Below, piece by piece: positions 4,601 through 20,456 of a DNA stretch of 32,000 nucleotides; within the stretch, counting starts at the first letter, position 1, and every line of letters starts with the position of its first letter. The stretch spans positions 2,220,001-2,252,000 of the forward strand of contig NC_014034.1 of assembly GCF_000021865.1 (NCBI RefSeq), read 5' to 3'. A program made the position numbers and the translations under genes. The notes under the pieces were generated by a model, which did not search any database, was not told the DNA's origin, and saw only the letters and a list, made by a program, of their open reading frames with translations. The DNA comes from Rhodobacter capsulatus SB 1003. GTDB lineage: Bacteria > Pseudomonadota > Alphaproteobacteria > Rhodobacterales > Rhodobacteraceae.

Positions 4601-4786
4601 CGCGACCGCGGACCAGCTGTCCAGCGCGGTCTCGATCAGCGCGCGCTCGGCCGTGGTGACCGCGGCGGCGAAGGAATAGGTCAGCGTGCGGCTGGCATCG
4701 AGCGCCCAGCCATAGGTGTAGCCGCCGAAATAGCCGCGGATCAGCTGCTGGACCGCCTGGTCCTCGGTGAAGGTCGAAAGGGGCAT
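1700..4786 (-). CDS. Serralysin-family (M10B metzincin) zinc metalloprotease fused to extended RTX calcium-binding repeat regions; probable T1SS substrate
   Basis: Start chosen at ATG 4786 (MPLSTFTEDQ...), which has a CAGGAG RBS just upstream. The 96 codons further upstream in the 1124-aa ORF are Pro/Arg-rich junk that overlaps tandem repeats. HEIGHALGLGH zinc motif (nt 4385-4417) and Met-turn SVMSYF are present. There are dozens of GGxGxD nonapeptides (GGAGNDTL and similar). The C-terminus ...LGALSAGDFLL resembles serralysin-type T1SS signals (acidic residue followed by hydrophobics). Confidence 0.9.
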   Translation of the reverse strand: MPLSTFTEDQAVQQLIRGYFGGYTYGWALDASRTLTYSFAAAVTTAERALIETALDSWSAVAGITFVRVASGGQIGFQNSAAGAYCAMSGTGTNMVSATVNVASSWFSNYGGTLGSYSYQTYVHEIGHALGLGHTGNYNGSARFATDALYANDSWQTSVMSYFAQTDNPNTGATHAYLLTPMAFDIAAMRALYGAPAAVHGGNTTYGSGSTAGDGLDYLATASHRANVAFTLMDTDGIDTLDFSARAEAARIDLTPGAISDLFGQRGNMVIYAGTVIEHVRSGAGADRITGNTAANRLAAGAGNDTLAGGAGDDTLAGEAGDDRLAGEGGNDLLTGGAGADIFAFGTGFGSDTIEDLVASIDYVDLTAIAAIADWSALLALMADTATGVRIATAEGTILLSGLAISMLDPTHFLFAGGSGTGGGGGSGGDGLSLAGTAGRDTLLGGQGADTIDGGAGNDSITAGAGNDSVSGGAGNDTISLQEGDDIFADGSDSGADVVWGGAGDDTLTSRGGADALHGEAGDDLLVAGPSGCVLSGGLGDDTLQGGIAPTGSATAAGADVVSLGAGNDSYTGTGDAATGGDSVSGGDGNDRIETGAGVDTILGGAGRDTISAGAGNDSVTGGADADRIDLGAGDDIFTDTADTGADTVLGGLGNEVLTSLGGRDSLDGGEGNDSLTASAAGGALQGGLGNDTLQGGAGADVAADSGGNDLVDLGAGNDSYIASGDSAGNADTVRGGEGNDALSGAAGADSLDGGNGDDRLTGNDGNDTILGGAGQDSITAGAGNDNVSGGAGADRIDLGAGDDIFTDTADAGADAVLGGLGNEVLTSLGGLDTLDGGAGNDRLTASDAGSRLAGGLGNDTLQGGAGIDAVTDTGGNDLVSLGAGDDSFTATGDSAASADTISAGAGNDRISAGAGNDLLLGEAGNDSLTAGAGNDRLTAGTGNDLMTGGLGNDVFIFATGDGADRITDFRIGVDDIDLRGVAGLDSFADLSGHMTQSGRAVVIQVDGLMITLDNVTLGALSAGDFLL

Positions 4787-4860
4787 CCGGGCACTCCTGA
4801 GCGGGCGCGTGCGGCACGCGGCACAAGGCGGACCGGCGGGCCGGTCGGCGACACGAGAAC

Positions 4861-4974
4861 GGGAAAGCAGGGGCGCCTTTGGCACCGCGGGAAAGCAAGG
4901 GCGCCTTTGGCGCTGGGGGAAAGCAGAAACGCCTTTGGCGCCGGGGGGGAAGAACGGGCCTTCATGGCCACCGG
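4861..4974. repeat. About 3.5 head-to-tail copies of a 28-bp tandem repeat in the upstream region of the RTX protease gene
   Basis: GGGAAAGCAGGGGCGCCTTTGGCACCGC (4861-4888), GGGAAAGCAAGGGCGCCTTTGGCGCTGG (4889-4916), GGGAAAGCAGAAACGCCTTTGGCGCCGG (4917-4944), and a degenerate copy GGGGGAAGAACGGGCCTTCATGGCCACCGG (4945-4974). Each unit carries a small GCGCC-TTT-GGCGC inverted repeat. Confidence 0.85.
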
Positions 4975-5273
4975 AGGATCCGCTTCCCGGGATCGAAACT
5001 ACCCGGTCCCCGGGCGCTGCGGCAAGCCGGAGCGCCCCGGGATTGCGGGTCAAGTTCGGCTCTATGGTGAACAAATCCTTGGCGCGGCCCGGCCCGGACC
5101 CGGCTTTGTTAATCGCTGCGGCGGCGGGGTGGCGCGGGCGCGTCGGGGCGGCGGCGGGGCGGCGGCGGAACCGTGCCCGGGGCCGGGCGGGCCCGCCGGG
5201 ACGAGATCCGGGACAAGATCGGACGAGGTCGGGGCAGCACAGCGCGGGCCGGGCGCCGAATCAGCGGCGGGGC

Positions 5274-7166
5274 TCAGCCCCGGGCCTTGCGGATCGGGTC
5301 GGCCAGCAGCCGCAGCCCGTTGAGCACCACCAGCACCGTGCCGCCCTCGTGACCGATCACCGCCACCGGCAGCGGCAGCTCGAAGAACAGCCCCGAGAGC
5401 ACCAGAACCGCCATCGCCCCCATGGCGAAGACAAGGTTCTGCCGGATGATCCGCGCCGTGCGGCCCGCCAGCCGGTGCGCTTCGGACAGCCGCGAGATGT
5501 CATCGGCCAGAAGCGCGACATCGGCGGCCTGCAGCGCCACCTCGGAGCCCGCAACCCCCATCGCGATGCCGACATCGGCGCGGGCCAGCGCGGCGGCGTC
5601 GTTCACCCCGTCGCCGACGAAGGCGACCCGGCCCCGCGCGGTCAGATCGGCAACGATCTTCACCTTGTCCTCGGGGCGCAGATCGGCGTGGATTTCATCC
5701 GCGCCGATGCCAAGTTCGGCGCCGATCCGCTCTGCCACCGCGCGCCGGTCGCCGGTCAGCATCGCGATCTGCCCGACCCCGCCCGCCCGCAGCGCCGCCA
5801 GCCCGGCCGGGGTGCTGTCGCGCGGGCGGTCCTCGCAGGTCACCCCGCCAAGGATCTTCGCGCCCCGCCCCAAAAGCACCAGCGTCCGCGGCGCGTTTTC
5901 CAAAACCGCAGGCAGCGCCAGCGTCTCGGCCGCCCGCGCGCCCATCCGCTGCGCCAGCCGCGCATTGCCCGCCCAGATCACCCCCTCGTCATCGACCGCC
6001 ACCATGCCCTCGCCCGGCACGGCCCGCGCCTCGCGCACGGGCAGCGGAACGATGCCGCGGGCGGCGACGTGCTGGCGGATCGCCGTGGCGATCGGATGTT
6101 CGGATTGCGCCTCGATCCCGGCCAGACGGGCCAGAAACAGCGCCTCGTCGCCCTCGCAGTGGATATCGACGATCTCCTGCTTGCCGGTGGTCAGCGTGCC
6201 GGTCTTGTCAAAGGCAAAGGTCTCGACCTTGGCCAGCGTCTCCAAGGCCGCGCCGCCCTTGAACAGAACGCCCCCCCGCGCCGCCACCGACAGCGCCGAG
6301 AGGATCGCGGCGGGAACCGAAATCACGATGGCGCAGGGGCTGGCCGCCACCAGCAGCGTGGCGGCCTTGTAAAGCGCCGCGTTCCAGCCGTGCCCGATCG
6401 CCCAGAAGGCGGCAAAGGCCGAGACCGCGGCCAGCAGAACCGCCACGGTGTAGCGCTGCCCGAACCAGGCCGAGAACCGCTCCGAGGGCGAACGGGCCGC
6501 CTGCGCCTCGGTCACCAGCGCGATCATCCGCGCCACGGTGCTTTCGCCCAGTTCGCGCCGGACCTCGATTTCCAGCACGCCATGCAGGTTCACCGTGGCT
6601 TCAAAGACCTGCGCGCCGGGGGCCTTGTGCACCGGCACGGATTCGCCGGTGATCGTGCTTTCGTCGATCGCCCCCTCGCCCGCGACGATGACACCATCGA
6701 CCGGCACCCGCGCGCCCGGACGCAAGATCACCACATCGCCCGGCACCAGCGTTTCCACCGCCACCTCGACCGTGTCCCCGCCCTGCCGTTTCAGCGCCCG
6801 GTCGGGGCGCAGCTCCATCAGCGCCTCGATCGCCCGGCGTGCCCGCCCCATCGCCCGGTGTTCAAGCGTGGTCGACAGGCTGAACAGCGTCAGCAGGACG
6901 GCCCCTTCCAGCGCCGCCCCCACGGCCGCCGCCGCCAGCGCCGCGACCACCATCAGCAGGTCGATGTCCAGCTGACGCTCCTCGATCAGCGCGCCAACCG
7001 CCCGATAGGCCGCCGGAACCCCGCCGGTCAGAAAGACCGACAAAAGCGCCAGCGTCTCGACCCAGCCACCGCCCAGCCCCGGAAAGATCCAGTGCCCCGC
7101 CGCGGCAAGCACCATCGCCGCAATCGTGGCCCAGGTCAGAACCAGCCTGCTCGTGTCCTCGGTCAT
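5274..7166 (-). CDS. P1B-4-type heavy-metal (Co/Zn/Cd-class) translocating P-type ATPase
   Basis: Start taken at ATG 7166 (MTEDTSRL...) after a GGGAGGAA RBS. Motifs present: TGES, DKTGTLT phosphorylation site, GDGVNDAAAL hinge, transmembrane SPC (AASPCAIV) and HEGGT (IGHEGGTVLV), which are signatures of the P1B-4 subgroup. No N-terminal CxxC/HMA domain; only about 20 aa precede TM1. Confidence 0.88.
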   Translation of the reverse strand: MTEDTSRLVLTWATIAAMVLAAAGHWIFPGLGGGWVETLALLSVFLTGGVPAAYRAVGALIEERQLDIDLLMVVAALAAAAVGAALEGAVLLTLFSLSTTLEHRAMGRARRAIEALMELRPDRALKRQGGDTVEVAVETLVPGDVVILRPGARVPVDGVIVAGEGAIDESTITGESVPVHKAPGAQVFEATVNLHGVLEIEVRRELGESTVARMIALVTEAQAARSPSERFSAWFGQRYTVAVLLAAVSAFAAFWAIGHGWNAALYKAATLLVAASPCAIVISVPAAILSALSVAARGGVLFKGGAALETLAKVETFAFDKTGTLTTGKQEIVDIHCEGDEALFLARLAGIEAQSEHPIATAIRQHVAARGIVPLPVREARAVPGEGMVAVDDEGVIWAGNARLAQRMGARAAETLALPAVLENAPRTLVLLGRGAKILGGVTCEDRPRDSTPAGLAALRAGGVGQIAMLTGDRRAVAERIGAELGIGADEIHADLRPEDKVKIVADLTARGRVAFVGDGVNDAAALARADVGIAMGVAGSEVALQAADVALLADDISRLSEAHRLAGRTARIIRQNLVFAMGAMAVLVLSGLFFELPLPVAVIGHEGGTVLVVLNGLRLLADPIRKARG

Positions 7167-7364
7167 CCCGTTCCTCCCGTGCTGCCGCTTTTCCGCGCCA
7201 CGCGCGGGCGGGTGTCGCGCTCTCATAGCGCGATCGGCCCCGGTTCGGCCAGAGCCGCAAGAGGCGCATGGCGTCGCAACCGGACCCCGGCCAGCCCCCC
7301 GAAATCGCGATGGAATCTCTTTTGCAGAAAGAAGCTGTTAATCAAGCTGGCGTAGCTTGCCCGC

Positions 7365-9542
7365 ATGACACATGCGCTTTCGCCCCGCCAACAGGAAGAC
7401 ATCGCCCTCGGCTCGCCGCAGATGACGGCGCTGCGGGGCCTGTTCCTGATCTGCCTGCACCACGGCGTCACCCTGCCGGTCACCGAAATCCCCGCGCTGG
7501 AAGAGGGCTCCATCGCCCCCCGGCTTGAAGCGACCTTTCAGCGCGCGGGCTTTCGCAGCCGCCAGATCAGCGGCGGCACTTGGCGCACGGCGAAGGGGCT
7601 CGGCTCGGCCTATCCGGCGCTGTGCGAGGGCAAGGACGGCCGCTGGTTCATCCTTGCCCATACCGTCGATCTGCCCGCCGGGCCGCATGCCGCCATCCTT
7701 GACCCCGCGCGCGAAGGCGAGGGCATCCTGTTCCTGCCGCAAGCGGAGTTCGAGGCGCGCTGGTCGGGGCGGCTGATCCTGGCGCGGCTGCGCAAGACCG
7801 AACTTTCGGCACGGCGTCCCTTTGGTCTGGGCTGGTTCATGCCGGCGCTGCTGGAGCAACGCGCGCTGTTTGGCGGCGTGGCGGTGGCGGTGGTGGCGGG
7901 CAACCTCATTGCCTTTGCCCTGCCCTTCCTGATGCAGGTGATGATTGACAGCGTGATTTCCTCGCATGCCTGGAACACGCTGGCGGCGGTGCTGTCGGTC
8001 TATGTGTTTCTGGTGCTGTTCGACGCGGCTTTCAGCTATGTGCGCCAGCGCCTGATGCAGATCTGCGGCGGGCGGCTCGATGCGCGGATCGGCGCGGCGG
8101 TGCATGCGCATCTGTTGTCGCTGCCCTTGTCGATGTTCGAGACGACGGCCGCGGGCGTTCTGGCCCGCAACATGCAACTGACTGAAAAGATAAGGCATTT
8201 TCTGGTCGGGCGGTTGTTTCAGACGATGCTGGATGCCGCGCTTTTGCCGGTTCTGCTGACGCTTCTGGCGCTTTTGTCGGGGCTGATGACGCTGGTCGTT
8301 CTGGGCTTTGCGCTGACCATCGCGGGGCTTCTGGCGGTGTTTTTGCCCGCGCTGCAGCGCCGTCTTTCGGCGCTTTACGACGCCGAGGCGGGGCGGCAGG
8401 CGCATCTGGTCGAGACGCTGCACAACATGCGCACGGTGAAGGCGCTGGTGCTGGAAGGCACGCGGCGCGGGCTTTGGGAAACCGCGCTGGCGCGCACGAT
8501 CCGCAGCCAGTGGCAGGTGGGGGAACTTTCCGCCACCGTCAGCGCGCTAACCTCGCTGATGGAGCGGCTGATGCAGGTCGCGGTGCTGGGCCTTGGCGCC
8601 GAACAGGTGCTCTCGGGGCAGATCAGCGTCGGCACTTTGGTCGCCTTCATGATGCTTTCGGGGCGGGTCACCGGCCCCCTGGTGCAGATCGTCGGGCTGA
8701 TCAACGAATGGCAGGAAGCGGCGCTGGCCGTGCGCACGCTCCGCGGCGTGATGGACCATCCGCCCGAACGCGGCCCCGAGGTGCGGCCGATCCGCCCGCC
8801 CCTGCGCGGGGCGATCCGGATCGAGGATCTGTGCTTCACCTATCCCGGCACCGCGACGCCCGCGCTCGATCATCTGACGCTCGACATCGCCGCCGGGCAG
8901 GTGATCGGCATTGTCGGGCGTTCGGGCTCGGGCAAGACGACGCTGACGCGGCTGCTGCAGGGCATCGGCTCGGCGCAATCGGGCCGCATCCTTTACGACG
9001 GCAATGACGCGCGCCACATCGACCTTGACCATCTGCGCCGTTCGGTCGGCATCGTGCTGCAGGAAAACGTGCTGTTCCGCGGCACCTTGCGCGAAAACAT
9101 CGCGCTCGCCCGTCCCGATGCCAGCCACGAGGCGGTGCTGCGCGCCGCGACGCTGGCGGGGGCGGCGGAATTCATCGACCGGCTGCCGCAGGGGCTCGAC
9201 ACCCCGGTCGAGGAAGGCGGGGCGAACCTTTCGGGCGGGCAACGGCAACGCATCGCGCTCGCGCGCGCGCTGCTCGCCGATCCGCCGATCCTGATCCTGG
9301 ACGAGGCGACCAGCGCGCTTGACCCCGAATCCGAGGCGGTGGTGAACCGCAACCTCGCCGCCATCGCGCAGGGGCGCACGGTGATCGTGGTCTCGCACCG
9401 GATGAGTTCGCTGGCGCATTCGGATGCGATCCTGGTGCTGGATCGCGGCCGGATCGAGGATTTCGCGCCCCATGCGGTGCTTCTGGCGCGCTCGCCGACC
9501 TATCGACATCTGTGGCTGCAACAGGCGGGGCAGACGGAATGA
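7365..9542 (+). CDS. Type I secretion system ABC transporter (HlyB family) with N-terminal C39-like domain
   Basis: 725 aa. The N-terminal region of about 140 aa resembles a C39 peptidase or C39-like domain. It is followed by a 6-TM ABC exporter domain. Walker A GRSGSGKTT, signature LSGGQRQRIALARA and Walker B ILILDEATSALD are present. The residue I align to the C39 catalytic Cys is Thr (QMTALRGLFLICLHHG), suggesting an inactive CLD as in HlyB. That alignment was done by eye. Confidence 0.9.
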   Translation: MTHALSPRQQEDIALGSPQMTALRGLFLICLHHGVTLPVTEIPALEEGSIAPRLEATFQRAGFRSRQISGGTWRTAKGLGSAYPALCEGKDGRWFILAHTVDLPAGPHAAILDPAREGEGILFLPQAEFEARWSGRLILARLRKTELSARRPFGLGWFMPALLEQRALFGGVAVAVVAGNLIAFALPFLMQVMIDSVISSHAWNTLAAVLSVYVFLVLFDAAFSYVRQRLMQICGGRLDARIGAAVHAHLLSLPLSMFETTAAGVLARNMQLTEKIRHFLVGRLFQTMLDAALLPVLLTLLALLSGLMTLVVLGFALTIAGLLAVFLPALQRRLSALYDAEAGRQAHLVETLHNMRTVKALVLEGTRRGLWETALARTIRSQWQVGELSATVSALTSLMERLMQVAVLGLGAEQVLSGQISVGTLVAFMMLSGRVTGPLVQIVGLINEWQEAALAVRTLRGVMDHPPERGPEVRPIRPPLRGAIRIEDLCFTYPGTATPALDHLTLDIAAGQVIGIVGRSGSGKTTLTRLLQGIGSAQSGRILYDGNDARHIDLDHLRRSVGIVLQENVLFRGTLRENIALARPDASHEAVLRAATLAGAAEFIDRLPQGLDTPVEEGGANLSGGQRQRIALARALLADPPILILDEATSALDPESEAVVNRNLAAIAQGRTVIVVSHRMSSLAHSDAILVLDRGRIEDFAPHAVLLARSPTYRHLWLQQAGQTE

Positions 9543-10855
9543 TCCAGCTTGGCTCCATCGACCGCGAGGCCATCGCCTTTCAGGAAGAGCTTGACCGGGT
9601 GCAGGTCGAGCCGGTGCCGGTGCTGTTGCGGCTCTGGCCGTTTCTGGCGGCGGCGCTGCTGGCGGGGCTCGTCGGGCTTGCCGCCTTCCTGCGCGTCGAT
9701 GTCGTGGTGACGGCCCCGGGCCAGCTGGCTGCGGCCGAACCGCCCCTGATGCTGCGCCCGGCCGCCAGCACCCGGCTTGACGCGCTTCTGGTGCGTCCGG
9801 GTGATGTGGTCGTGGCGGGGCAGCTGCTGGCGCGGCTCGATCCGACCCAGCCCGAGGCCGATCTGGCCGCGCTCGAGGCCGAACGCGATGCGCTTTCGGC
9901 CCGGATCGCGCGGCTGACGGCGGAACTTGAAGGCGGCGTGCTGGCCGAAACCGGCCCCGCGCTGGCCGCGGAAGCCGATGTGCTGACCGAGCGGCGGCTG
10001 GAAAGCCGCACCAAGGCCGAGGCGCTGCAGGCCGAGATCGCCTCGGCCGAGGCCCTGATCGAAGCGGAAACCCGCGATGGCGCGGGGCTGCGCGAGCAGC
10101 TCTCGATCCTGCGCGAGGTCGAGGCGATGCGCAACACCCTCGCCGAACGGCAGAGCGGCTCGCAACTGGCGGTGCTCGATGCGCGGCTGATGCGGCTGCG
10201 CGCCGAGGCCGATCAGCGCGCCCATGAAAGCCGCCTGGCCGAATTGCGCGACCGCCGCGACCGCGCCATCGCCGAACATCGGATGTTCCTGACCAGCCTG
10301 AAACGCACCGCGAGCGAGCAGCTGGCGGAAGCCGGGCCGCGGCTGCAGGTCGTCGAGGAGCAGATCGCCAAGGCCCGCGCGCTGCGGGAAATGGCCGATC
10401 TGGTCGCCCCCCGTCCGGGCGTGGTGCTGCGCGTCGCCGAGGGCGGCGTCGGCAGCCTGATCCCGGCGGGCAATCCGGTGGTGGTTCTGGTGCCAACCGA
10501 TGTGCCGCTTCTGGCCGAGATCGGGCTGCGCTCGACCGATGCCGGGCGGGTGGTCGCGGGCGATCCGGTCTCGATCAAGATCGACGCCTTTCCCTGGCGC
10601 GAACACGGCCAGCTGACCGGCTCCCTGACCGAGGTCGGCCATGCCAGCTACCGCGCGCAGGGCGCTTCGGAGGCGCAACACCCCGCCCATGTCGCGCTTG
10701 ATCCCGCCGCGGTGCTGGAGAACCTGCCGCCCGCGGCGACGCTGCTGCCCGGCATGACGCTTTCGGCCGAGATCCACACCGGCACCCGGTCGGTTCTCTC
10801 CACCTTCTTCGAGCCGATCCTGCGCGGACTGGCCGAAGCGCTGCGCGATCCGTGA
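9539..10855 (+). CDS. HlyD-family type I secretion membrane fusion protein
   Basis: ATG at 9539 overlaps the ABC stop codon (ATGA), indicating translational coupling. It has one N-terminal TM segment, a long Ala/Glu/Arg/Leu-rich coiled-coil region (RIARLTAELE..., ALQAEIASAEALIEAE...) and a C-terminal beta-barrel-like region. This architecture and the gene order match HlyB-HlyD. Confidence 0.85.
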   Translation: MIQLGSIDREAIAFQEELDRVQVEPVPVLLRLWPFLAAALLAGLVGLAAFLRVDVVVTAPGQLAAAEPPLMLRPAASTRLDALLVRPGDVVVAGQLLARLDPTQPEADLAALEAERDALSARIARLTAELEGGVLAETGPALAAEADVLTERRLESRTKAEALQAEIASAEALIEAETRDGAGLREQLSILREVEAMRNTLAERQSGSQLAVLDARLMRLRAEADQRAHESRLAELRDRRDRAIAEHRMFLTSLKRTASEQLAEAGPRLQVVEEQIAKARALREMADLVAPRPGVVLRVAEGGVGSLIPAGNPVVVLVPTDVPLLAEIGLRSTDAGRVVAGDPVSIKIDAFPWREHGQLTGSLTEVGHASYRAQGASEAQHPAHVALDPAAVLENLPPAATLLPGMTLSAEIHTGTRSVLSTFFEPILRGLAEALRDP

Positions 10856-10905
10856 TCGCGATGACCCTTTCCCCCGTTTCAGATCGCCCCATGAAGGAGA
10901 ATCCC

Positions 10906-11514
10906 ATGACCGACGCGACCCCGATCGAAACCGCCGATGCGGTGCCGATGACCGCAACCAGGACCGTGCTGCATGTCGGCTGCGGGGTTGCCCATCCGGC
11001 GAAACTGCCCGAGGCCTATTTTCCGCTCTCCGACTGGCGCGAGGTGCGGCTTGACATCGATCCCGACGTCGCCCCCGATATCGTCGCCAGCCTGACCGAC
11101 ATGTCGGCCGTCGCCGATGCCAGCGTCGATGCGGTCTGGTCGTCGCACAATCTGGAACATCTGGCGCCGCATGAAGTTCCGGTGGCGCTGGCCGAATTCA
11201 TCCGGGTGCTGAAACCGGGCGGTTTCGCGCTGGTGACCATGCCCGATCTTCAACAGGTCGCGACGCTGGTGGCCGAGGGGCAGCTTGAAGAGCCCGCCTA
11301 CATGTCGAGCCTCGGCCCGATCTCGCCGCTCGACATCCTTTACGGCTATCGTCCCGCGCTGGCCGAGGGCAACATCTTCATGGGGCACCGCACCGGCTTC
11401 ACCGCCCGGTCGCTGCGCGAGCACCTGACCCGTGCCGGTTTCGCCGGGGTGACCGTCGAACGCGACGGCCGCTTCGCGCTCTGGGGGGTCGGCACCCGGC
11501 TCGCCACGGCCTGA
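10906..11514 (+). CDS. Class I SAM-dependent methyltransferase (Methyltransf_11-like), third gene of the T1SS operon
   Basis: ATG at 10906 is preceded by AAGGAGA with 5-nt spacing. VLHVGCG (motif I), D at the end of beta-2 (RLDIDP) and VLKPGGFALV (post-motif) are typical of the Rossmann methyltransferase fold. It lies 50 nt downstream of the MFP on the same strand. Confidence 0.8.
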   Translation: MTDATPIETADAVPMTATRTVLHVGCGVAHPAKLPEAYFPLSDWREVRLDIDPDVAPDIVASLTDMSAVADASVDAVWSSHNLEHLAPHEVPVALAEFIRVLKPGGFALVTMPDLQQVATLVAEGQLEEPAYMSSLGPISPLDILYGYRPALAEGNIFMGHRTGFTARSLREHLTRAGFAGVTVERDGRFALWGVGTRLATA

Positions 11515-11553
11515 TCCGGCCAGACCGGCGACAGCACCTCGGATTGCAAGGCT

Positions 11554-11587
11554 CAAAAGGTCCGGATCCCCCGATCCGGACCTTTTG
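11554..11587. terminator. Bidirectional intrinsic-terminator-like hairpin (15-bp perfect stem, CCCC loop, A-tract/T-tract arms)
   Basis: CAAAAGGTCCGGATC-CCCC-GATCCGGACCTTTTG. It lies 40 nt after the methyltransferase stop, in the convergent intergenic region. Confidence 0.6.
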
Positions 11588-11660
11588 GCATGCGGCTCCC
11601 CCTTGGCGATGGCCAAGACCGGGTCCGGCCCCCGGCCGTTGTCGCGTGCGGACAGGAAAA

Positions 11661-11684
11661 CGGGGCTTCCAGACGGAAGCCCCG
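11661..11684. terminator. GC-rich hairpin (10-bp stem, AGAC loop)
   Basis: CGGGGCTTCC-AGAC-GGAAGCCCCG in the convergent intergenic region between the methyltransferase and the octad-repeat gene. Confidence 0.4.
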
Positions 11685-11695
11685 GATCGGGAAAT

Positions 11696-11719
11696 CCGCT
11701 TCCGCCGAAGCGGAAGCGG
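11696..11719 (-). terminator. Hairpin immediately downstream of the octad-repeat gene (10-bp stem, 4-nt loop)
   Basis: CCGCTTCCGC-CGAA-GCGGAAGCGG, 17 nt after the stop at 11736. On the minus strand it is followed by GATTTCCC. Confidence 0.5.
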
Positions 11720-11735
11720 CCGTTGTCGGATCGGA

Positions 11736-14507
11736 TCAGAGCAGCAGGGCCGAGCGCTGTTCGTCGCTCAGATAGCCAAGCTGGGTCGTGCTGAACGCCG
11801 CCACCTGGACCGAGGTCAGCGCCGCGAGATCCGCCGTTTCCATCGCGCCGAGCATCCCGGCATCAAGCCCGGCCAGCTGGGCAGTGGTCAGGCCGATGAC
11901 CTGCTTGGTGCCCAGCGCGGCAACGGCGCCCGCGGTCAGCTCGTTCAGCGACGCGATCGACATCGCCCCGATCTGCGCGCTCGTGAGGTTGGCGATCTGC
12001 GCCGTGGTGAAGCCCGCCCCCTGTTCCGAGGTCAGCGCCGCCAGCTGGACCGTGGTCAGGGCCTTCACCGCGGTGGAGCTCAGCGCGCCGAAGTCCTGGC
12101 TTTCAAGCGCACCGATCTGGGCCGTCGACAGCGTCGCCACCTGCGTGGCCGACAGCGTCGCCGCCTGCGCCGTGGTCAGGGCGTCGATCTGCCCCGTGCT
12201 CAGCGCGGTGATCTGGGTCGAGCTCAGCCCCTTGATCGCAGCCGTCGAGAGCGCGGCGAAATCCGCCGTCTGCAGCGCGGAGATCTGCGCCGTGCTGAGC
12301 GCCGCCACCTGCGTCGAGCTCAGCGCGGCGGCCTGACCGGTCGTCAGCGCCACGATGTCATCGGTGCCGAGCCCCGCCAGAGCCGCCGCCCCGAGCGCCT
12401 TGACCTGCGCCGTGGTCAGAACGGTGTTGATCTGCGTCGTGGTCAGGCCGGTCAGCTGCGCCGAACCGAGAACCGCGACCTGCGCCGTCGTCATCTTCGC
12501 CAGCGTGGCATTGGCCAGCGCGGCGATATCGGCGCTCTCCAGCCCCTTGATCGCCGCCGTGGTGATCTGCGCGATCTGATCGGTGCCGATCGCCCCCGCC
12601 TGCGCCGTGGTCAGCGCCGTGATCTGCGTCGACGAGAAGCCCTTGAAGGTCGCGGCCGAGAGCTTGGCAAGATCGGCCGTCTCCATCGCCGCAACCAGCG
12701 AGGTGCTCAGCGCGGCGATCTGGCTCGAGCTGAGCGCCGGTGCCTGGGTGGTGGTCAGCGCCACGATGTCGGCGGTTTCAAGGCCAAGAATGTTGCTTGC
12801 CGTCAGACCCTTGATCTGCGCCGTGCCAAGCGCCGCGATCTGCGCCGTGGTCATGGCGCGGATCTGCGAGGAGCTGAGCGCGGCGATCTGGGCCGAGGTC
12901 AGCGCCTGCGCTTCGGCCGTGGTCAGCCCCGCCATGTCGGCCGTGCTGAGCCCCTTGACCGCCGCGGTCGAGAGCAAGCCGATCTGGGTCGAGGTCAGCG
13001 CCCCCGCCTGCGCATCGGACAGCGCCGCGATCTGCGCCGAGGTCAGGCCCTTGACCGCCGTGGTGGTCAGGCTGGCGATATCCGCGCTTTCGATTCCGCC
13101 GACCTGGCCGGTCGTCATCGTCGCGATCTGCGCCGAGGTCAGACCGCCGATCTGCGTCGCCGTGAACGCCGTCATGTCCGCCGCGGAAAGCCCCTTGATC
13201 CCGGCGGTCGAGAGCAGGCCGATCTGCGTCGAGGTCAACTGGCCCAGCTGGGTCGTGGTCAGCGCATTGACCTGAACCGAGCCGAGGCCCTTGATCGCGC
13301 CGGTGCTCAGATCATCGATGGCGCCGGTGGCGATCGCCGCGATCTGACCCGTGCTCATGGCGGCCAGATGCTTGTCGGTCAGGCCCTTGACCTGCGCCGT
13401 GGTCAGGGCGGCAACGGTGGCGGTGGCGACACCGACGACACCGGTGGCGCTGATCGCGGCAATCTGCGTCGAGCTCAGCCCGGCCACGGTCGCGGTGCTC
13501 AGGCCCTGCAGCTGCGTCGAGGAGAGCGCGGCCAGCTGCGCGGTGGTCAGCGCGGCAACCTCGGTCGAGGTCAGGTTGGTGCTCAGATCCGCCGAGGAGA
13601 GGCCCTTGACGGCGGTGGCGCTGAGGTTGGCGATCTGCGCCGTGGTCAGCTCGCCGACCTGCGCGTCGGTCAGCCCACTCACCTGCGCCGAGCCGAGCCC
13701 CTTCACCGCAGCGGTGGTCAGGCTGGCAATCGCGGTGCTGGCGATGTCGTCGATCTGCGTCGAGGTCAGCGCGGCCACCTGTTTCGAGGAGAGCGCCGCC
13801 ACCCGCGCGGTGTCAAGCGCCCCGAGGAAGCCCGAGGTCAGACCGGCGACCGAGGTCGCGTTCAGCGCGGCCACCTGCGCCGTGCTCAGCAGCGGCGCCT
13901 GCGTCGAGGTCAGATCGTCGAGCTGCGTCGAGGTCAGCGCGCCGATTTGCGCGGTGGAGAAACCGGCAAGCTGCGCCGAGGTGAAGGCGGCCAGTTCGTT
14001 CGCTTCCAGCCCCCGCACCGCCCCGGTGGTGAGGCCCGCAAGCTGTTCGGCCGTCAGCGCGGCGGCCGCGGCGCTGGTCAGCGCGGTGACCTGCGCCGAG
14101 GACAGGCCGGCGATGCCGGTGGCGGTCAGGCCCGCGATGACGGTCGTGGTGACGTTGGGGAGCTGCGTGGTGGTCAGCGCGGCAAGCTGCGTCGAGGTCA
14201 GGACCGCGGCCTGATCGGAGCTCAGCGCGCCGAGCGCGGCGCCGCTCAGCCCCTTGATGCCCGCGGTGGTCAGCACCGCGATCTGGGTGCCCAGCAGCGC
14301 CGGAACCTGGGTCGCGGTCAGCCCCGCAACCTGCGTCGAGGTCAGAACGCGCAGGTTTGCCGTGCCAAGCACCGGCAGCTGATCGGTGGTCAGCGCCCCG
14401 AGCTGGGCGGAAGACATCGAGGCGACATCCGCCGTCGTGAGAGCCGCGATTGCCGCCGTCTCCAGCGCGGCAATCTGGGTCGTCGTCATATTGGAAATGG
14501 CCGTCAT
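11736..14507 (-). CDS. Octapeptide-repeat protein: 923 aa made of 114 consecutive 8-residue repeats (consensus T-[TS]-[AT]-Q-[IVL]-[AG]-[AG]-L); function unknown
   Basis: The 958-aa ORF has a TTG at 14612. I place the start at ATG 14507 (MTAISNM...) because third-position GC drops sharply in the 35 codons upstream and a GGGAA lies about 8 nt before this ATG. An alternative ATG lies near 14590. After 7 residues the whole protein is octads down to ...SDEQRSALLL*. There is no signal peptide, no Cys or Trp, and very few charged residues. GC3 is very high throughout. Confidence 0.85.
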   Translation of the reverse strand: MTAISNMTTTQIAALETAAIAALTTADVASMSSAQLGALTTDQLPVLGTANLRVLTSTQVAGLTATQVPALLGTQIAVLTTAGIKGLSGAALGALSSDQAAVLTSTQLAALTTTQLPNVTTTVIAGLTATGIAGLSSAQVTALTSAAAAALTAEQLAGLTTGAVRGLEANELAAFTSAQLAGFSTAQIGALTSTQLDDLTSTQAPLLSTAQVAALNATSVAGLTSGFLGALDTARVAALSSKQVAALTSTQIDDIASTAIASLTTAAVKGLGSAQVSGLTDAQVGELTTAQIANLSATAVKGLSSADLSTNLTSTEVAALTTAQLAALSSTQLQGLSTATVAGLSSTQIAAISATGVVGVATATVAALTTAQVKGLTDKHLAAMSTGQIAAIATGAIDDLSTGAIKGLGSVQVNALTTTQLGQLTSTQIGLLSTAGIKGLSAADMTAFTATQIGGLTSAQIATMTTGQVGGIESADIASLTTTAVKGLTSAQIAALSDAQAGALTSTQIGLLSTAAVKGLSTADMAGLTTAEAQALTSAQIAALSSSQIRAMTTAQIAALGTAQIKGLTASNILGLETADIVALTTTQAPALSSSQIAALSTSLVAAMETADLAKLSAATFKGFSSTQITALTTAQAGAIGTDQIAQITTAAIKGLESADIAALANATLAKMTTAQVAVLGSAQLTGLTTTQINTVLTTAQVKALGAAALAGLGTDDIVALTTGQAAALSSTQVAALSTAQISALQTADFAALSTAAIKGLSSTQITALSTGQIDALTTAQAATLSATQVATLSTAQIGALESQDFGALSSTAVKALTTVQLAALTSEQGAGFTTAQIANLTSAQIGAMSIASLNELTAGAVAALGTKQVIGLTTAQLAGLDAGMLGAMETADLAALTSVQVAAFSTTQLGYLSDEQRSALLL

Positions 14508-14789
14508 GGTAGGTTCCCGGGTTGAAGGATCAACAAACTGCTCCACCGGGGCGTTCCCCCGACAGGCATCGGCCAGTTCTCGGCCACACATGACACCGGA
14601 CGATGCGCGCAAGCGGTTACAGAGCCGTTAAATCCGCCCCTTCCGGGCCCTCGGACCCCGGGAAAATTAGCTCGAATTCAATTCAACCCGGGCTTTGGCG
14701 CCCGAAACCGGGCCGCGTTTACCGCGGATTTACCTTGCGATGCGAGGCTTGCGCCGAGGCCTCTGCGAAGGTCGGCATCCAGAAGGAGT

Positions 14790-16649
14790 TTGCCCTTGCC
14801 ATCCGTCGTTCCGTTCCTGCCCCTGCCCGGCGACACCCAGACGATCGCTGCGGCGCTGCACCAGCCCGGCGGTTTCACGGCCCAGGGCGATCTGGCACCG
14901 CATCTGGCGCGCGCGGTGGCGGCGCTCGGGATCGAGGGGCTGGTCAGCATCGGCGAGGCCGCGGCTCCGGCGCAGGGGGTGGCGCTTTACCGCGCCTGGC
15001 TCTTGCAGCACGGCCAGAAAGGGGACTCGGCGGCGGCCTGGTACAATCTCGGTGTCGCGCTGCAGCGGATGGGCAAACATGCCGAGGCCACGGCGGCGCT
15101 TGAGACCGCGCAAAGGTTGCGGCCGGGCCTGTGGCAGGCCGGTCTCGGCCGCGGGCTGGCCTTCGAGGCGGCGGGCGCCCCCGACAGCGCGCTCAGCGTC
15201 TGGCGCGAGCTTCTGCCCCCCGCCGAGGCGCGACGGCAGATCCACATCCAGCTGGCGCGGCTTCTGGAAGACCGCGGCCGTCTGGGCGAGGCGATCGAAG
15301 AAGCACGGGCGGCGCTCCTGATCGACCCCGACCAGCCCGACGTGATCCAGCATCTGGTGCACAACCGTCAGCGCACCACCACCTGGCCGGTGACCGAGGT
15401 CGCGGTGCCCGGCATTTCCGAGGAGCTGGCGGCGCGGCATGCGGGCCCTCTCGCGGCGCTGGCGCTGGTCGACGATCCGGCGCGGCAGGCCGAGATCTGC
15501 GCCAGCTGGATCGGCCGCAAACTGCCCGCGGCACCGCAGCTTCTGGCGCCTGCGGGCGGCTATGCCCATGACCGCGTGCGCATCGGCTATCTGTCGTCGG
15601 ATTTCTGCCGCCATGCGATGAGCTATCTGATCGCCGAGTTGCTGGAACGCCATGACCGCACCCGCTTCGAGATCTGGGGCTATGATGCCACCCGCGACGA
15701 TGGCAGCGACGTGCGCGCCCGGGTTCTGGCGGCGCTCGACCATCACGTCCCGATCCAGGACATGACCGACGAGGCCGCCGCCGCGCGCATCCGCGCCGAT
15801 GAGATCGACATCCTGATCGATCTGAACGGGCTGACCAAGGGCGCGCGTCCGGCGATCTTGCGGGCGAAACCGGCGCCGATGCAGGTCACCTATCTGGGCT
15901 ATATCGGCCCGGTGCCGCTGCCCGAACTCGATTATCTGCTGTGCGACGCGGTCACCGTGCCGCCCGGGGCCGAGGCCGATTACAGCCCCCGCCCGCTGCG
16001 GATCGCGGGCTGCTATCAGGCCAATGACGGTGTCATGCCGCAGCTGCCCGCCGTCACCCGCGCCGAGGAAGGCCTGCCCGAGGATGCCGTGGTCTTCACC
16101 TGCGTCTCGCATCATTACAAGCTGACCGAGGCGGTCTGGGGCGCCTGGTGCCGCATCGTCGCCCGGGTGCCCGGTTCGGTGCTCTGGATCATCGACGACA
16201 ACCCGGAGTCGCGCGCGGCGCTGACGGCGCGCTGGGGTGCGGCGGGGCTGGCGCCCGAACGGCTGATCTTTGCCGCCCGCACCGACCCCGCCCGCTACCG
16301 CGCCCGGCTGGCCTTGGCCGATCTTTTCCTCGACACCACGCCCTACAACGCGGGCACGATCGCCTCGGATGCCTTGCGGATGGGGCTGCCGCTGATCACC
16401 ACGCGCGGCCGGGCCTTTGCCGCGCGGATGGGGGCAAGCCTGCTTACCGCGATCGGCCTGCCCGACTGCATCGCCGAGGATCTGGCGGGCTACGAGGATC
16501 TGGCGGTGGCGATCGGAACCGATCCGGCGCGGCTTGGGGCGCTCAAGGCGCATCTGGCGACCGGCGCCTGGGAACGCACGCTGGGCGATGCCGAGGATTT
16601 CACCCGCCGCTTCGAAGCTGCGCTGCTGGCGGGCCGGGCCGCGCTCTGA
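14790..16649 (+). CDS. TPR-containing GT41-family glycosyltransferase (O-GlcNAc transferase / SPINDLY-like)
   Basis: 619 aa. TTG start at 14790, or at 14796 with better spacing from GAAGGAG at 14783-14788. The N-terminus has about 3 TPR-like units (AAWYNLGVALQRMGKHAEATAALETAQRLRP...). The catalytic region aligns by eye with human OGT: RIGYLSSDFCRHAMSYLI vs RVGYVSSDFGNHPTSHLM, LIDLNGLTKGARPAILRAKPAPMQVTYLGY vs [30 protein letters not shown], and PGSVLWII...DLFLDTTPYNAGTIASDALRMGLPLIT vs PNSVLWLL...[27 protein letters not shown]. Confidence 0.9.
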   Translation: MPLPSVVPFLPLPGDTQTIAAALHQPGGFTAQGDLAPHLARAVAALGIEGLVSIGEAAAPAQGVALYRAWLLQHGQKGDSAAAWYNLGVALQRMGKHAEATAALETAQRLRPGLWQAGLGRGLAFEAAGAPDSALSVWRELLPPAEARRQIHIQLARLLEDRGRLGEAIEEARAALLIDPDQPDVIQHLVHNRQRTTTWPVTEVAVPGISEELAARHAGPLAALALVDDPARQAEICASWIGRKLPAAPQLLAPAGGYAHDRVRIGYLSSDFCRHAMSYLIAELLERHDRTRFEIWGYDATRDDGSDVRARVLAALDHHVPIQDMTDEAAAARIRADEIDILIDLNGLTKGARPAILRAKPAPMQVTYLGYIGPVPLPELDYLLCDAVTVPPGAEADYSPRPLRIAGCYQANDGVMPQLPAVTRAEEGLPEDAVVFTCVSHHYKLTEAVWGAWCRIVARVPGSVLWIIDDNPESRAALTARWGAAGLAPERLIFAARTDPARYRARLALADLFLDTTPYNAGTIASDALRMGLPLITTRGRAFAARMGASLLTAIGLPDCIAEDLAGYEDLAVAIGTDPARLGALKAHLATGAWERTLGDAEDFTRRFEAALLAGRAAL

Positions 16650-16756
16650 CGCGCTCGGCCGCCTGCCCCCCCCCTGCCCCCGCAACGGGCGCAGTCTGCA
16701 CAGTCCGGCGGCGCCTGTCGCCGGATTGTCATGAAAGCTTCACTGGACGGGGGGAT

Positions 16757-16778
16757 TGCTTCCTGTATTCAGGAAGCA
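16757..16778 (+). promoter_or_regulatory. Perfect 9-bp inverted repeat overlapping the RBS and start codon of the arsR-arsC fusion gene (candidate operator or RBS-sequestering hairpin)
   Basis: TGCTTCCTG-TATT-CAGGAAGCA. The right arm contains the AGGAAG Shine-Dalgarno, and its last A is the A of ATG 16778. Confidence 0.4.
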
Positions 16779-17623
16779 TGGAAAACACTTGCCCCACCCC
16801 CGAGGCCGCCGCGGCCTTTGCCTGTCTTGGCCATCCCGGTCGCCTGTCGGTGTTCCGGATGCTCATGCGCTTTGCGCCGCAGGGCGTGCGGCCCACCGAA
16901 ATCGCCGCGGCGCTGGGGCTGAAGCCAAACACCCTCTCGCATCATCTGGCGGATCTGACTGCTTGCGGGCTGGTCACAGTCACCCGGCAGGGGCGGTCGC
17001 TTTTCTACGCCGTCGATCTTCACAAAACCGAATCCCTGATCGGCTATCTCGCCCTCGATCTGGGCCGGGCCCGGCCCGACCTGATGCCCAAAGCTCTTCA
17101 TGAAAAGGCAAATCCCATGCCCGACACGCCCTTCAACGTGCTTTTCATCTGCTCGGGCAATTCCGCCCGCTCGATCTTTGCCGAGGCGCTCCTGCGCGAT
17201 CTGGGCGCGGGCAAGTTCACCGCCCATTCCGCCGGAACGCGGCCCGGGACCGCGATCAACCCTTTCGCGCTCGAGGTGCTGAGCCGCAACGGCCATGACA
17301 CCGGGGGCCTGCGCGCCAAGCATCTGTCGGAGTTCCAGGGCCCCGCCGCGCCGCAGATGGAGTTCGTCTTCACCGTCTGCGATACGGCGGCGGCCGAGGA
17401 CTGCCCGCCCTGGCCCGGTCAGCCGATCACCGGCCATTGGGGCCTGCCCGATCCGGTCAAGGCCACCGGCACCGAGGCCGAACGCGCGCTGGTTTTCGCC
17501 CAGACCTACGGGGCGCTGCGCCGCCGCATTGCCGCCTTTGTCGACCTGCCCTTTGCCACGCTCGACCGGCTGGCGCTGCAAACCCGCGTCGATGCGATCG
17601 GCGCCCTGCCCGAAAAGGCCTGA
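16778..17623 (+). CDS. ArsR/SmtB-family HTH regulator fused in frame to an LMW-PTP-type (thioredoxin-coupled) arsenate reductase ArsC
   Basis: ATG 16778 follows an AGGAAG RBS. The upstream part of the 491-aa ORF overlaps the GT41 gene and is rejected. The N-terminal half has a winged-helix ArsR-like region (LGHPGRLSVFRML...PTEIAAALGLKPNTLSHHLADLTACGLV...GRSLFY). The C-terminal half has the CX5R P-loop FICSGNSARS and a distal Cys pair VCDTAAAEDCP. No stop codon separates the two halves. Confidence 0.8.
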   Translation: MENTCPTPEAAAAFACLGHPGRLSVFRMLMRFAPQGVRPTEIAAALGLKPNTLSHHLADLTACGLVTVTRQGRSLFYAVDLHKTESLIGYLALDLGRARPDLMPKALHEKANPMPDTPFNVLFICSGNSARSIFAEALLRDLGAGKFTAHSAGTRPGTAINPFALEVLSRNGHDTGGLRAKHLSEFQGPAAPQMEFVFTVCDTAAAEDCPPWPGQPITGHWGLPDPVKATGTEAERALVFAQTYGALRRRIAAFVDLPFATLDRLALQTRVDAIGALPEKA

Positions 17624-17626
17624 GCC

Positions 17627-20382: not shown

Positions 20383-20456
20383 TGGAGCGGGTGAAGGGAA
20401 TCGAACCCTCGTCATCAGCTTGGGAAGCTGCGGCTCTACCATTGAGCTACACCCGC
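20383..20456 (-). tRNA. tRNA-Gly (anticodon CCC), CCA encoded
   Basis: Reverse complement: GCGGGTG-TA-GCTC-AATGGTA-GAGC-C-GCAGC-TTCCCAA-GCTGA-TGAC-GAGGG-TTCGATT-CCCTT-CACCCGC-TCCA. This gives a 7-bp acceptor stem, D and T arms with GTTCGATTC, and anticodon loop TT-CCC-AA. There is one G:A mismatch at the top of the anticodon stem. Confidence 0.85.

Follow-up and report, generated by a model that had tools for sequence, protein, structure and literature searches.

A block of five genes at positions 7365-16649 of a 32,000-nucleotide stretch from Rhodobacter capsulatus SB 1003 (NC_014034.1, positions 2,220,001 to 2,252,000; the window) is probably a module in which a cargo protein without RTX repeats is modified and exported by a type I secretion system (T1SS). 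This block comprises an operon for an ABC transporter, a periplasmic adaptor (membrane fusion protein, MFP) and a methyltransferase (MT) dependent on S-adenosylmethionine (SAM), a convergent gene for a protein of eight-residue repeats (the octad protein), and, divergent from the latter, a gene for a glycosyltransferase of family GT41 with tetratricopeptide repeats (TPRs). Judged from gene neighbourhoods, the association of these five families recurs across the Alpha-, Beta- and Gammaproteobacteria. Each family is already known and the repeat is catalogued in Pfam; no description of their association was found in the searchable literature. The recurrence of the partnership suggests a class of giant repeat proteins, modified and exported, that has yet to be described. 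The features concerned are as follows.

7365-9542, + strand: T1SS ABC permease/ATPase, HlyB-like, with a degenerate C39-like domain, 725 aa (Pfam, NCBIfam, alignment to HlyB)
9539-10855, + strand: HlyD-family T1SS periplasmic adaptor, the MFP (TIGR01843; ATGA overlap)
10852-11514, + strand: class I SAM-dependent MT, third gene of the T1SS operon (Methyltransf_11; GTGA overlap)
11661-11684, - strand: intrinsic terminator hairpin, strong (10 pairs, 8 of them G-C, with a T-tail)
11736-14507, - strand: octad (ALTTAQ) repeat protein, 923 aa, convergent to the ABC-MFP-MT operon (PF20080, 24-bp periodicity, AlphaFold2 model)
14508-14795, no strand: divergent intergenic region between the octad and GT41 genes, 282-288 bp (sequence)
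14796-16649 (alternative start TTG 14790), + strand: TPR and GT41 glycosyltransferase resembling the O-GlcNAc transferase (OGT), with the short-TPR architecture of the Xanthomonas campestris enzyme XcOGT (PF13844)
1700-5074, - strand: RTX serralysin-like metalloprotease, 1124 aa, outside the block (18 RTX stretches and Peptidase_M10)

The gene map was drawn by third-position GC analysis of this ~70% GC sequence. The ABC, MFP and MT genes are translationally coupled, by the ATGA overlap at 9539-9542 between the first two and the GTGA overlap at 10852-10855 between the last two. The terminator hairpin lies 52 nt past the octad stop codon, between the two convergent units. The divergent octad-GT41 region, which is presumed to hold promoters for both directions, shows 82-92% conservation among three R. 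capsulatus genomes; a scan of it for the sigma-70 consensus gave no match, the consensus being uninformative in a 70% GC alphaproteobacterium. A first-pass annotation made from the sequence alone gave this region 282 bp, which holds if the GT41 gene starts at TTG 14790; from TTG 14796, which is better spaced from the AAGGAG at 14783-14788, it measures 288 bp.

The whole block is held in synteny in the three R. capsulatus genomes, with identities of 97-98% for the ABC, 93-98% for the MFP, 93-96% for the MT, 88-96% for GT41 and 83-85% for the octad orthologues. A protein search brought up no near-identical copy of the window's octad protein, and its exact GT41 sequence had no record. Coordinates, Pfam and NCBIfam bear out the five genes that the first-pass annotation had read here, including the operon of a HlyB-like ABC with a C39-like domain, an ATGA-coupled HlyD-like MFP and a SAM methyltransferase, as well as the OGT-like enzyme (PF13844 with TPRs) divergent from the repeat gene.

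Gene neighbourhoods across the Proteobacteria

Seeding with the octad protein in species-representative genomes yielded 75 loci, each examined over ±10 kb. Genes were called in all loci, their proteins were clustered all against all, and the resulting families were ranked by the number of loci. Behind the octad family, GT41 came first with 29 loci, ahead of the ABC with 18 and of the MT (counting the window) and the MFP with 16 each. A TolC-like outer-membrane factor (OMF) was present in 13 loci, as a 442-aa family identified as OEP (Pfam, E=2e-52) and a second OEP family. The remaining families occurred in nine loci or fewer each, and the annotated ones among them reflect housekeeping synteny inside one genus group; examples, recognised from a reading of their sequences, are acyl-CoA dehydrogenase, ETF and MurI. 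Of the 32 loci in which the octad gene has 5 kb or more of sequence on each side, 27 contain one or more partner families. GT41 is adjacent to the octad gene in 10 of 12 alphaproteobacterial, 13 of 14 gammaproteobacterial and 5 of 46 betaproteobacterial loci. Median distances from the octad gene amount to 98 bp (GT41), 375 bp (MT) and 2.5 kb (ABC). Three distant relatives with repeats only (P0014, P0004 and P0001, at L001-L004) had no partners, a small and distant sample that the systematic scan superseded.

The arrangement of the genes differs among lineages (OCT, octad gene; arrowheads give the direction). It is ABC> MFP> MT> <OCT GT41>, or with GT41 divergent, in Rhodobacter and Rhodovulum kholense; <MT OCT> GT41> <OMF <MFP <ABC in Pseudomonas; <OMF <MFP <ABC OCT> ... 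GT41> in Methylomonas; and OCT ... <GT4 <OMF <MFP <ABC in some Burkholderiales. Order and orientation vary by lineage; therefore, proximity has been kept despite rearrangement. The transporters vary as well. The octad-linked ABC of Pseudomonas is of the PrtD type, has no N-terminal domain and comes with an OMF (TIGR01842, 736 bits against a cutoff of 510), and a PrtD-type transporter with an OMF also adjoins octad genes in Methylomonas and Hydrogenophaga. Those of Rhodobacter, Rhodovulum and Massilia are HlyB-like and bear a C39-like domain (CLD). Therefore, two non-orthologous T1SS classes are linked to octad genes.

Octad loci without GT41 adjoin other glycosylation genes, GT4 included. In Pelomonas and Roseateles, genes for a DegT aminotransferase, a hexapeptide acetyltransferase, an FdtA-acetyltransferase and a PseB-like dehydratase flank the octad gene; there, these nucleotide-sugar genes form a conserved set that follows an octad pair, which is preceded by an unannotated 318-aa protein (c30) with no Pfam match. 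Tandem giant octad genes occur in many Burkholderiales, at L015, L017, L027 and L029 in Pelomonas and Roseateles and also at L014, L030, L031, L048, L054, L061, L064 and L066.

A metagenome scan seeded with the GT41 enzyme covered 38 loci. Six of the seven relatives of at least 55% identity have an octad gene alongside, and the seventh, on a 3-kb contig, still has the MT. In four of the seven (L080-L083), GT41, octad, MT, ABC (54-61% identity) and MFP genes occur together with no RTX protease match; another locus (L087) has ABC, MFP, octad and GT41 genes. The third seed was the ABC transporter, which belongs to a large clade of ~724-aa proteins with 57-80% identity. Six matches on the longest contigs were picked before their contexts had been seen. 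The ABC-MFP-MT operon was kept in five of them and an adjacent octad gene in three (L121, L122 and L123). L121 carries the full five-family block, and L122 and L123 carry a convergent 3,305-aa octad protein ending in ...MSTAQISALFL. In Rhodovulum visakhapatnamense (L119), the ABC-MFP-MT operon stands alone, and a GT41-octad pair lies on another contig of the same assembly (L016). Judging from these contexts, octad proteins are the most frequent neighbour of this ABC clade, and in the alphaproteobacterial lineage the T1SS operon includes the MT as a fixed member.

The co-occurrence of the five families was thus found from the octad protein, from GT41 and from the ABC. This three-way synteny supports the functional link claimed by the first-pass annotation. 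The gene organisation and its conservation are shown, and the glycosylation, methylation and export that it also proposed are inferred. The synteny that ties the octad gene functionally to GT41 is strong evidence, and T1SS export of the octad protein receives good but not exclusive support. The first-pass annotation had staked the link on octad and GT41 genes not occurring without a linked T1SS and MT. Such loci do exist at the scale of ±10 kb (L016, L040, L045 and L077, for example). However, the partners of L016 lie elsewhere in the same genome, at L119; therefore, unlinked octad-GT41 loci do not refute the link.

The repeat protein, the pump and the putative modifying enzymes

The octad protein matches PF20080 (ALTTAQ_rpt) with E=7e-169 and 547.6 bits, against a gathering score of 26.4, in 31 stretches. 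Its gene has a period of 24 bp, and the self-identity of the protein is 0.33 at a lag of 8 residues and multiples thereof, against a background of ~0.09. About 115 octads of the form L-[ST]-[ST]-[AT]-Q-[IV]-[AG]-[AG] follow one another with only two one-residue phase slips. Ser and Thr together make up 26% of the residues, Cys and Trp are absent, and the protein is net acidic. It starts at ATG 14507 (MTAISNMTTTQIAAL...), which fits the family-wide N-terminal consensus, and ends in ...SDEQRSALLL. Of the 75 octad N-termini that were compared, nearly all fit M-x-S-x-I-x-S-L-T-T-A-Q-I-A-A-L, in which the repeats set in at about residue 5 and a hydrophobic signal segment is absent. The C-termini fall into a few types, mostly an acidic patch followed by a hydrophobic tip, such as ...DEDELNRQPPLI, ...EEQQRQVLI, ...AQLNALFL and that of the window protein. 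Acidic-plus-hydrophobic extreme C-termini are required for the secretion of Erwinia metalloproteases, of which the octad C-termini are reminiscent. PF00353 is absent from the octad protein, which has a single loose G-x-G-x-D match, and the loose RTX motif count is 0-1 in nearly all of 90 family members. The protein therefore is as the first-pass annotation described it, a signal-less, Ser/Thr-rich repeat protein ending in ...DEQRSALLL and without GGxGxD motifs; that description had missed that the family is already catalogued as PF20080. Like T1SS substrates, it has no signal peptide, is acidic and Cys-poor, and is encoded beside transporter genes.

Other octad proteins are much larger, with 1,200-5,600 aa, and often form tandem pairs. 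Database proteins combine ALTTAQ repeats with RTX, HCBP, M10/reprolysin, cadherin/Calx, G8, PD40 and calpain domains, most of which are typical of exported proteins. A large share of ALTTAQ proteins (P0005, P0009, P0016, P0057 and others) end in a calpain-type (C2) cysteine protease domain, and others have PF26745, which often accompanies the repeats in short ALTTAQ proteins, at that end. It seems that the repeat rod carries C-terminal heads of various kinds. No paper mentioning the ALTTAQ family, PF20080, or describing its function was found in the searchable literature.

An AlphaFold2 model of the octad protein was built on a 16-sequence alignment. Its mean predicted local distance difference test score (pLDDT) is 91.1, with no residue below 50, and its predicted template modelling (TM) score is 0.52. 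The model contains 113 helices and no strands, and each octad forms a helix of 5-6 residues and a linker of 2-3 residues. The protein is thus predicted to be a mini-helix solenoid rod. A Foldseek search against the PDB retrieved generic HEAT/ARM solenoids only (TM 0.05-0.23), and mesothelin was the best match locally (target TM 0.25-0.36). Because these matches are non-specific, the eight-residue mini-helix solenoid lacks a close solved counterpart. When the sequence is mapped on the model, A-L-[ST] forms the linker and [ST]-x-Q-[IV]-[AG] the helix, so that T-x-x-Q occupies N-cap to N3. Such a pattern is the classical helix capping box.

The ABC transporter matches ABC_membrane (E=5.6e-38) and ABC_tran (E=2.3e-33) in Pfam. 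Its best NCBIfam model is TIGR01846, HlyB (557 bits against a cutoff of 725), followed by LssB (483) and PrtD (338). Since all of these scores are below the subfamily cutoffs, it represents a distinct T1SS subfamily. Over its N-terminal 150 aa it aligns with HlyB's C39-like domain, and the Pfam C39 match is below threshold (18.8 bits against 22). Q-M-T-A-L stands at the position of the catalytic Cys, and Trp takes the place of the His (GRWFIL, against GRHFIL in HlyB). Because both positions are substituted, the domain is a non-catalytic CLD; the protein does not have the catalytic Cys and His of C39 peptidase-type bacteriocin exporters, and the best-scoring T1SS models and the N-terminal CLD identify it as a T1SS-type exporter. 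The MFP scores 228.7 bits with TIGR01843 (cutoff 208.65), as expected of a HlyD adaptor encoded with its ABC. Among the proteins of the 32-kb window scanned against Pfam, none matched the TolC-type OEP family, in agreement with the first-pass annotation, which had listed no TolC-like factor. The tolC gene is often unlinked from T1SS genes, and T1SS loci without an OMF are common.

The GT41 enzyme matches PF13844 (E=1.6e-66, 225 bits against 25) and TPR_1/2/8. It aligns with human OGT (E=8.7e-68) and, over residues 81-590, with XcOGT (E=3e-63). The active-site motifs DFxxH and YK are kept: SSDFCRH aligns with SSDFGNH, and HYK with LYK. They correspond to the motifs of the active-site His (H498) and the UDP-binding Lys (K842) of human OGT (residue numbers in part from PMC2556091). 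Members of GT41 use UDP-GlcNAc, UDP-Glc/Gal or GDP-Fuc, and HMW1C is an N-glucosyltransferase. The short TPRs imply a protein substrate. With equally few TPRs, XcOGT is active as an OGT and accepts a very narrow range of substrates (PMC2556091), and the family also holds the O-fucosyl transferase SPY (PMC9715652).

Several contexts of more distant GT41 relatives were observed. In a clade of ~51% identity (L096 2884-4863 and, similarly, L086, L088, L095 and L099), GT41 is followed by a conserved ~660-700-aa protein with a weak protein-kinase-like match (E=5e-5) and a hydrophobic C-terminus, which may be a different partner or substrate system. On peat metagenome contigs (L104 8576-9733, also L100-L107 and L114), an MT with an N-terminal GT41-like TPR module lies directly upstream of GT41, with no octad gene or T1SS on the contig. 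GT41 and MT therefore form a unit in their own right, and the fusion suggests that the MT is protein-directed too. In X. campestris (L118 8919-11707), XcOGT (XCC0866) comes after hemA-prfA with a 4-bp overlap at the prfA stop codon, an arrangement conserved across Xanthomonas and Stenotrophomonas. This slot is the place of prmC/hemK in the E. coli hemA-prfA-prmC operon and may hint at a native substrate related to translation.

The MT matches Methyltransf_11 (44.8 bits against 21.2) and also Methyltransf_25/23, and thus has a Rossmann SAM-binding domain. It belongs to a distinct and well conserved family of ~200 aa with the motifs LHVGCG, SSHNxEH and GPIxxxDILYG, whose members, with 38-70% identity, adjoin octad, GT41 or T1SS genes in many loci. 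The NPPY or [NDS]PP[YFW] motif of HemK/PrmC-type enzymes was not found in it. Methylation of the repeat Gln by a PrmC-like enzyme was considered and rejected, since this motif is absent and the Gln is explained as N3 of the capping box.

The proposed route, its alternatives and the surrounding genes

In the route that we propose, the octad protein would be made without a signal peptide, and the short TPR superhelix of the cytoplasmic GT41 enzyme would grip the extended chain. GT41 would transfer a sugar to Ser/Thr residues of the repeats, most plausibly to the exposed second S/T of each octad, and the MT would methylate the glycan or the protein. The CLD-bearing ABC and the MFP may then recognise a C-terminal signal, consisting of the acidic patch and the hydrophobic tip, and recruit a TolC-like channel encoded elsewhere, through which the chain would be exported. 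By analogy with acylated HlyA, a modification on the scale of a monosaccharide should be compatible with passage through the T1SS conduit. Outside the cell, the chain could fold into a long rod of ~113 capping-box mini-helices and serve as a surface fibre or as a matrix or adhesin component. RTX proteins recur beside this ABC clade; therefore, the pump is likely shared, and the neighbouring RTX metalloprotease would probably be its second client.

Several observations weigh against this route. No GT41, GT4 or sugar-biosynthesis neighbour is present within 10 kb in 31 of the 46 betaproteobacterial loci, and many loci with octad and GT41 genes have no T1SS within that distance. The GT41 relatives of ~50% identity from peat metagenomes have no octad gene on their contigs, and GT41-octad linkage is strict in the closest GT41 clade only. 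The idea that all short-TPR bacterial OGTs are paired with an octad gene was dropped, because the hemA-prfA-XcOGT operon has none. Among the ABC relatives, L120 (Rhodobacter maris) has ABC and MFP genes only, and L124 combines the ABC-MFP-MT operon with an RTX protein (28 motifs) and no octad gene; RTX proteins also lie near the ABC clade in L123, L005 and the window. NCBIfam returned no family for the octad protein and hence no T1SS target-domain model. The capping box explains the invariant Thr/Ser and Gln of the repeat; therefore, its Ser/Thr richness is no independent evidence of glycosylation, for which it had been counted. Finally, a CLD-type ABC would have to recognise cargo without RTX repeats, and a helix-prone chain would have to stay unfolded before export.

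Alternatively, the clients of the T1SS may be RTX proteins alone (the 1124-aa serralysin-like protease and paralogues), the octad and GT41 genes being an independent pair that happens to lie nearby and the octad protein taking another export route or none. CLD-type ABCs such as HlyB bind RTX substrates, and both the recurrence of RTX proteins near this clade, at L124 in a locus with no octad gene, and the many octad-GT41 pairs without a nearby T1SS fit such a division. Nevertheless, we regard it as unlikely. The same ABC/MFP clade stands beside octad genes with no RTX protease match at L051, L080-L083, L087, L121 and L122, and the PrtD-type systems with an OMF adjoin octad genes in three genera. 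Moreover, the T1SS families are the top non-glycosylation neighbours in an unbiased clustering, and octad proteins carry no alternative export signal. The first-pass annotation had called the RTX protease the more canonical substrate for a CLD-type ABC. This is half right: RTX proteins do recur near the clade, but the classical exporters of serralysin-type proteases are PrtD-type ABCs, which have no CLD.

It is very unlikely that the octad protein is an intracellular or envelope scaffold that is never exported, with GT41 as a regulatory enzyme of the O-GlcNAc type acting on it or on other cytoplasmic proteins. The lack of a signal peptide, the resemblance of the predicted alpha-solenoid to cytoplasmic HEAT/ARM scaffolds and the calpain domains of some relatives would agree with a scaffold, as would the housekeeping context of XcOGT. 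Furthermore, Yersinia pestis HmwC reportedly O-GlcNAcylates multiple proteins (PMC11329713). However, the Foldseek matches behind the resemblance are non-specific, and octad genes recurrently adjoin complete ABC-MFP-OMF systems. Further arguments for export are the RTX, cadherin/Calx, G8 and M10 domains joined to ALTTAQ repeats in other proteins, the sizes of up to 5,600 aa with tandem paralogues, the Cys-free acidic composition and the conserved extreme C-terminus.

Similarly improbable is a different target for GT41 and the MT (a T1SS component, an RTX client, a small molecule or a glycan), the octad protein being linked to them only through a common exporter: the MT does stay with the ABC-MFP genes where no octad gene is nearby (L119 and L124), pairs with GT41 on peat contigs without one, and has no PDB similarity beyond weak matches, a sugar O-methyltransferase among them, but GT41 is the tightest partner of the octad gene (23 of 26 alpha- and gammaproteobacterial loci), often without a nearby T1SS, the Pseudomonas MT lies beside the octad gene outside the T1SS operon, and the TPRs, in GT41 as in the TPR-MT fusion, imply that the substrates are proteins.

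The genes surrounding the block were also inspected. A gene for a heavy-metal P1B-type ATPase (5274-7226, - strand; TIGR01525, 585 bits) lies between the RTX protease and the T1SS operon; both it and the protease are kept beside the block in all three R. capsulatus genomes, and a functional link of the ATPase is not obvious. Directly downstream of the protease and on the same strand, a 412-aa protein (375-1613, - strand) has a partial Hsp70/actin-like ATPase match only (Hsp70 profile positions 4-234 of 599). R. capsulatus SP36 encodes an extra 713-aa RTX-family protein directly beside GT41 (L005 5528-7669), in addition to the RTX protease beyond the T1SS operon; RTX genes therefore accumulate around the locus. 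The ~980 bp between GT41 and the GAPDH gene (16650-17626) contain no convincing open reading frame, the third-position GC being low, and no Rfam match; they are 89% conserved in R. capsulatus DSM 1710 (L007) but only in part in SP108 (L006), and the SP36 locus lacks them. The sole Rfam match was a tRNA gene (20386-20456, - strand; RF00005, 67.9 bits) between an MFS transporter gene and a RACo-like gene.

Known systems and significance

The block resembles HlyCABD of E. coli in its CLD-bearing ABC and HlyD adaptor with TolC encoded elsewhere, in a signal-less acidic substrate, proposed here, with a C-terminal signal, and in a dedicated enzyme that is encoded with the transporter genes and would modify the cargo ahead of export. 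It differs in that HlyC acylates and HlyA has RTX nonapeptides, of which the octad protein has none, and the window ABC is below the HlyB cutoff. Giant non-toxin T1SS adhesins such as LapA, SiiE and MpIBP, and the glycosylated RTX-type surface proteins of cyanobacteria (SwmA, oscillin and Sll1951), are very long repetitive T1SS cargo that forms surface fibres or layers, as is proposed for octad proteins, the cyanobacterial ones being glycoproteins. Their repeats, however, are Ig-like/BIg domains or RTX beta-rolls and their C-termini are of the RTX type, whereas the octad protein is all-helical by prediction and is coupled to GT41 and the MT.

The closest functional analogy is the serine-rich repeat (SRR) system with accessory Sec and GtfA/GtfB. 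In the Gram-positive GspB/Fap1 systems, a Ser/Thr-rich repeat fibre is O-glycosylated in the cytoplasm and has a dedicated transporter encoded in the same locus. The components are different: GtfA/B are of the GT4 type, export uses SecA2/SecY2, anchoring is through LPXTG, and SRRs are disordered in contrast to the predicted helical solenoid. Neither SecA2/SecY2 nor GtfA/GtfB was found among the window proteins. HMW1C has no TPRs and, as an N-glycosyltransferase, acts on N-x-S/T, and its substrate HMW1 uses Sec and two-partner secretion; the window GT41 is of the TPR-OGT type, nearest to human OGT and XcOGT, and the proposed route is a T1SS. The HMW1C/ApNGT enzymes of Haemophilus and Actinobacillus provide a precedent of another kind, a cytoplasmic GT41 beside a large repetitive exoprotein with proposed hyperglycosylation before secretion (PMC2877744, PMC3012730). 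As with HMW1 and HMW1C, the window GT41 would be dedicated to a neighbouring adhesin or exoprotein. XcOGT (PDB 2JLB) shares with the window enzyme ~3 TPRs, a GT41 domain without the metazoan insert, and the His and Lys motifs, but it belongs to another clade, lies in the hemA-prfA operon and has no octad gene; a native substrate has still to be assigned to it (PMC2556091). Without RTX repeats, a GT41 of the N-glycosyltransferase type or SecA2/Y2, the octad module belongs to none of HlyCABD, HMW1/HMW1C and SRR/accessory Sec.

More tentatively, and with somewhat less than even confidence, we propose that ALTTAQ/octad proteins (900 to >5,500 aa) may be a widespread and unrecognised class of non-RTX T1SS cargo. 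They would be solenoid rods, of a kind not seen before, built of eight-residue mini-helices and O-glycosylated and methylated in the cytoplasm by dedicated short-TPR, OGT-like GT41 enzymes and the MT, a Gram-negative counterpart of the SRR/accessory Sec system, and the first native substrates of proteobacterial OGT-like enzymes. Since 2008, structures have been available for bacterial homologues of O-GlcNAc transferase, most of which are without assigned native substrates. The locus offers a specific and testable candidate enzyme-substrate pair in the genetically tractable R. capsulatus. If the proposal is true, the range of T1SS cargo would widen to proteins that lack RTX repeats and to proteins glycosylated and methylated ahead of export, and the catalogued but unstudied PF20080 family would gain its first functional context. 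As a simple and idealised repeat architecture, the predicted solenoid of capping-box mini-helices is of interest to structural biology and protein design. The octad family, with up to 5,600 residues per protein, is common in Proteobacteria of freshwater, soil and wastewater (Pseudomonas, Aquabacterium, Roseateles, Hydrogenophaga and Methylocystis), where octad rods could shape surfaces, flocs and biofilms.

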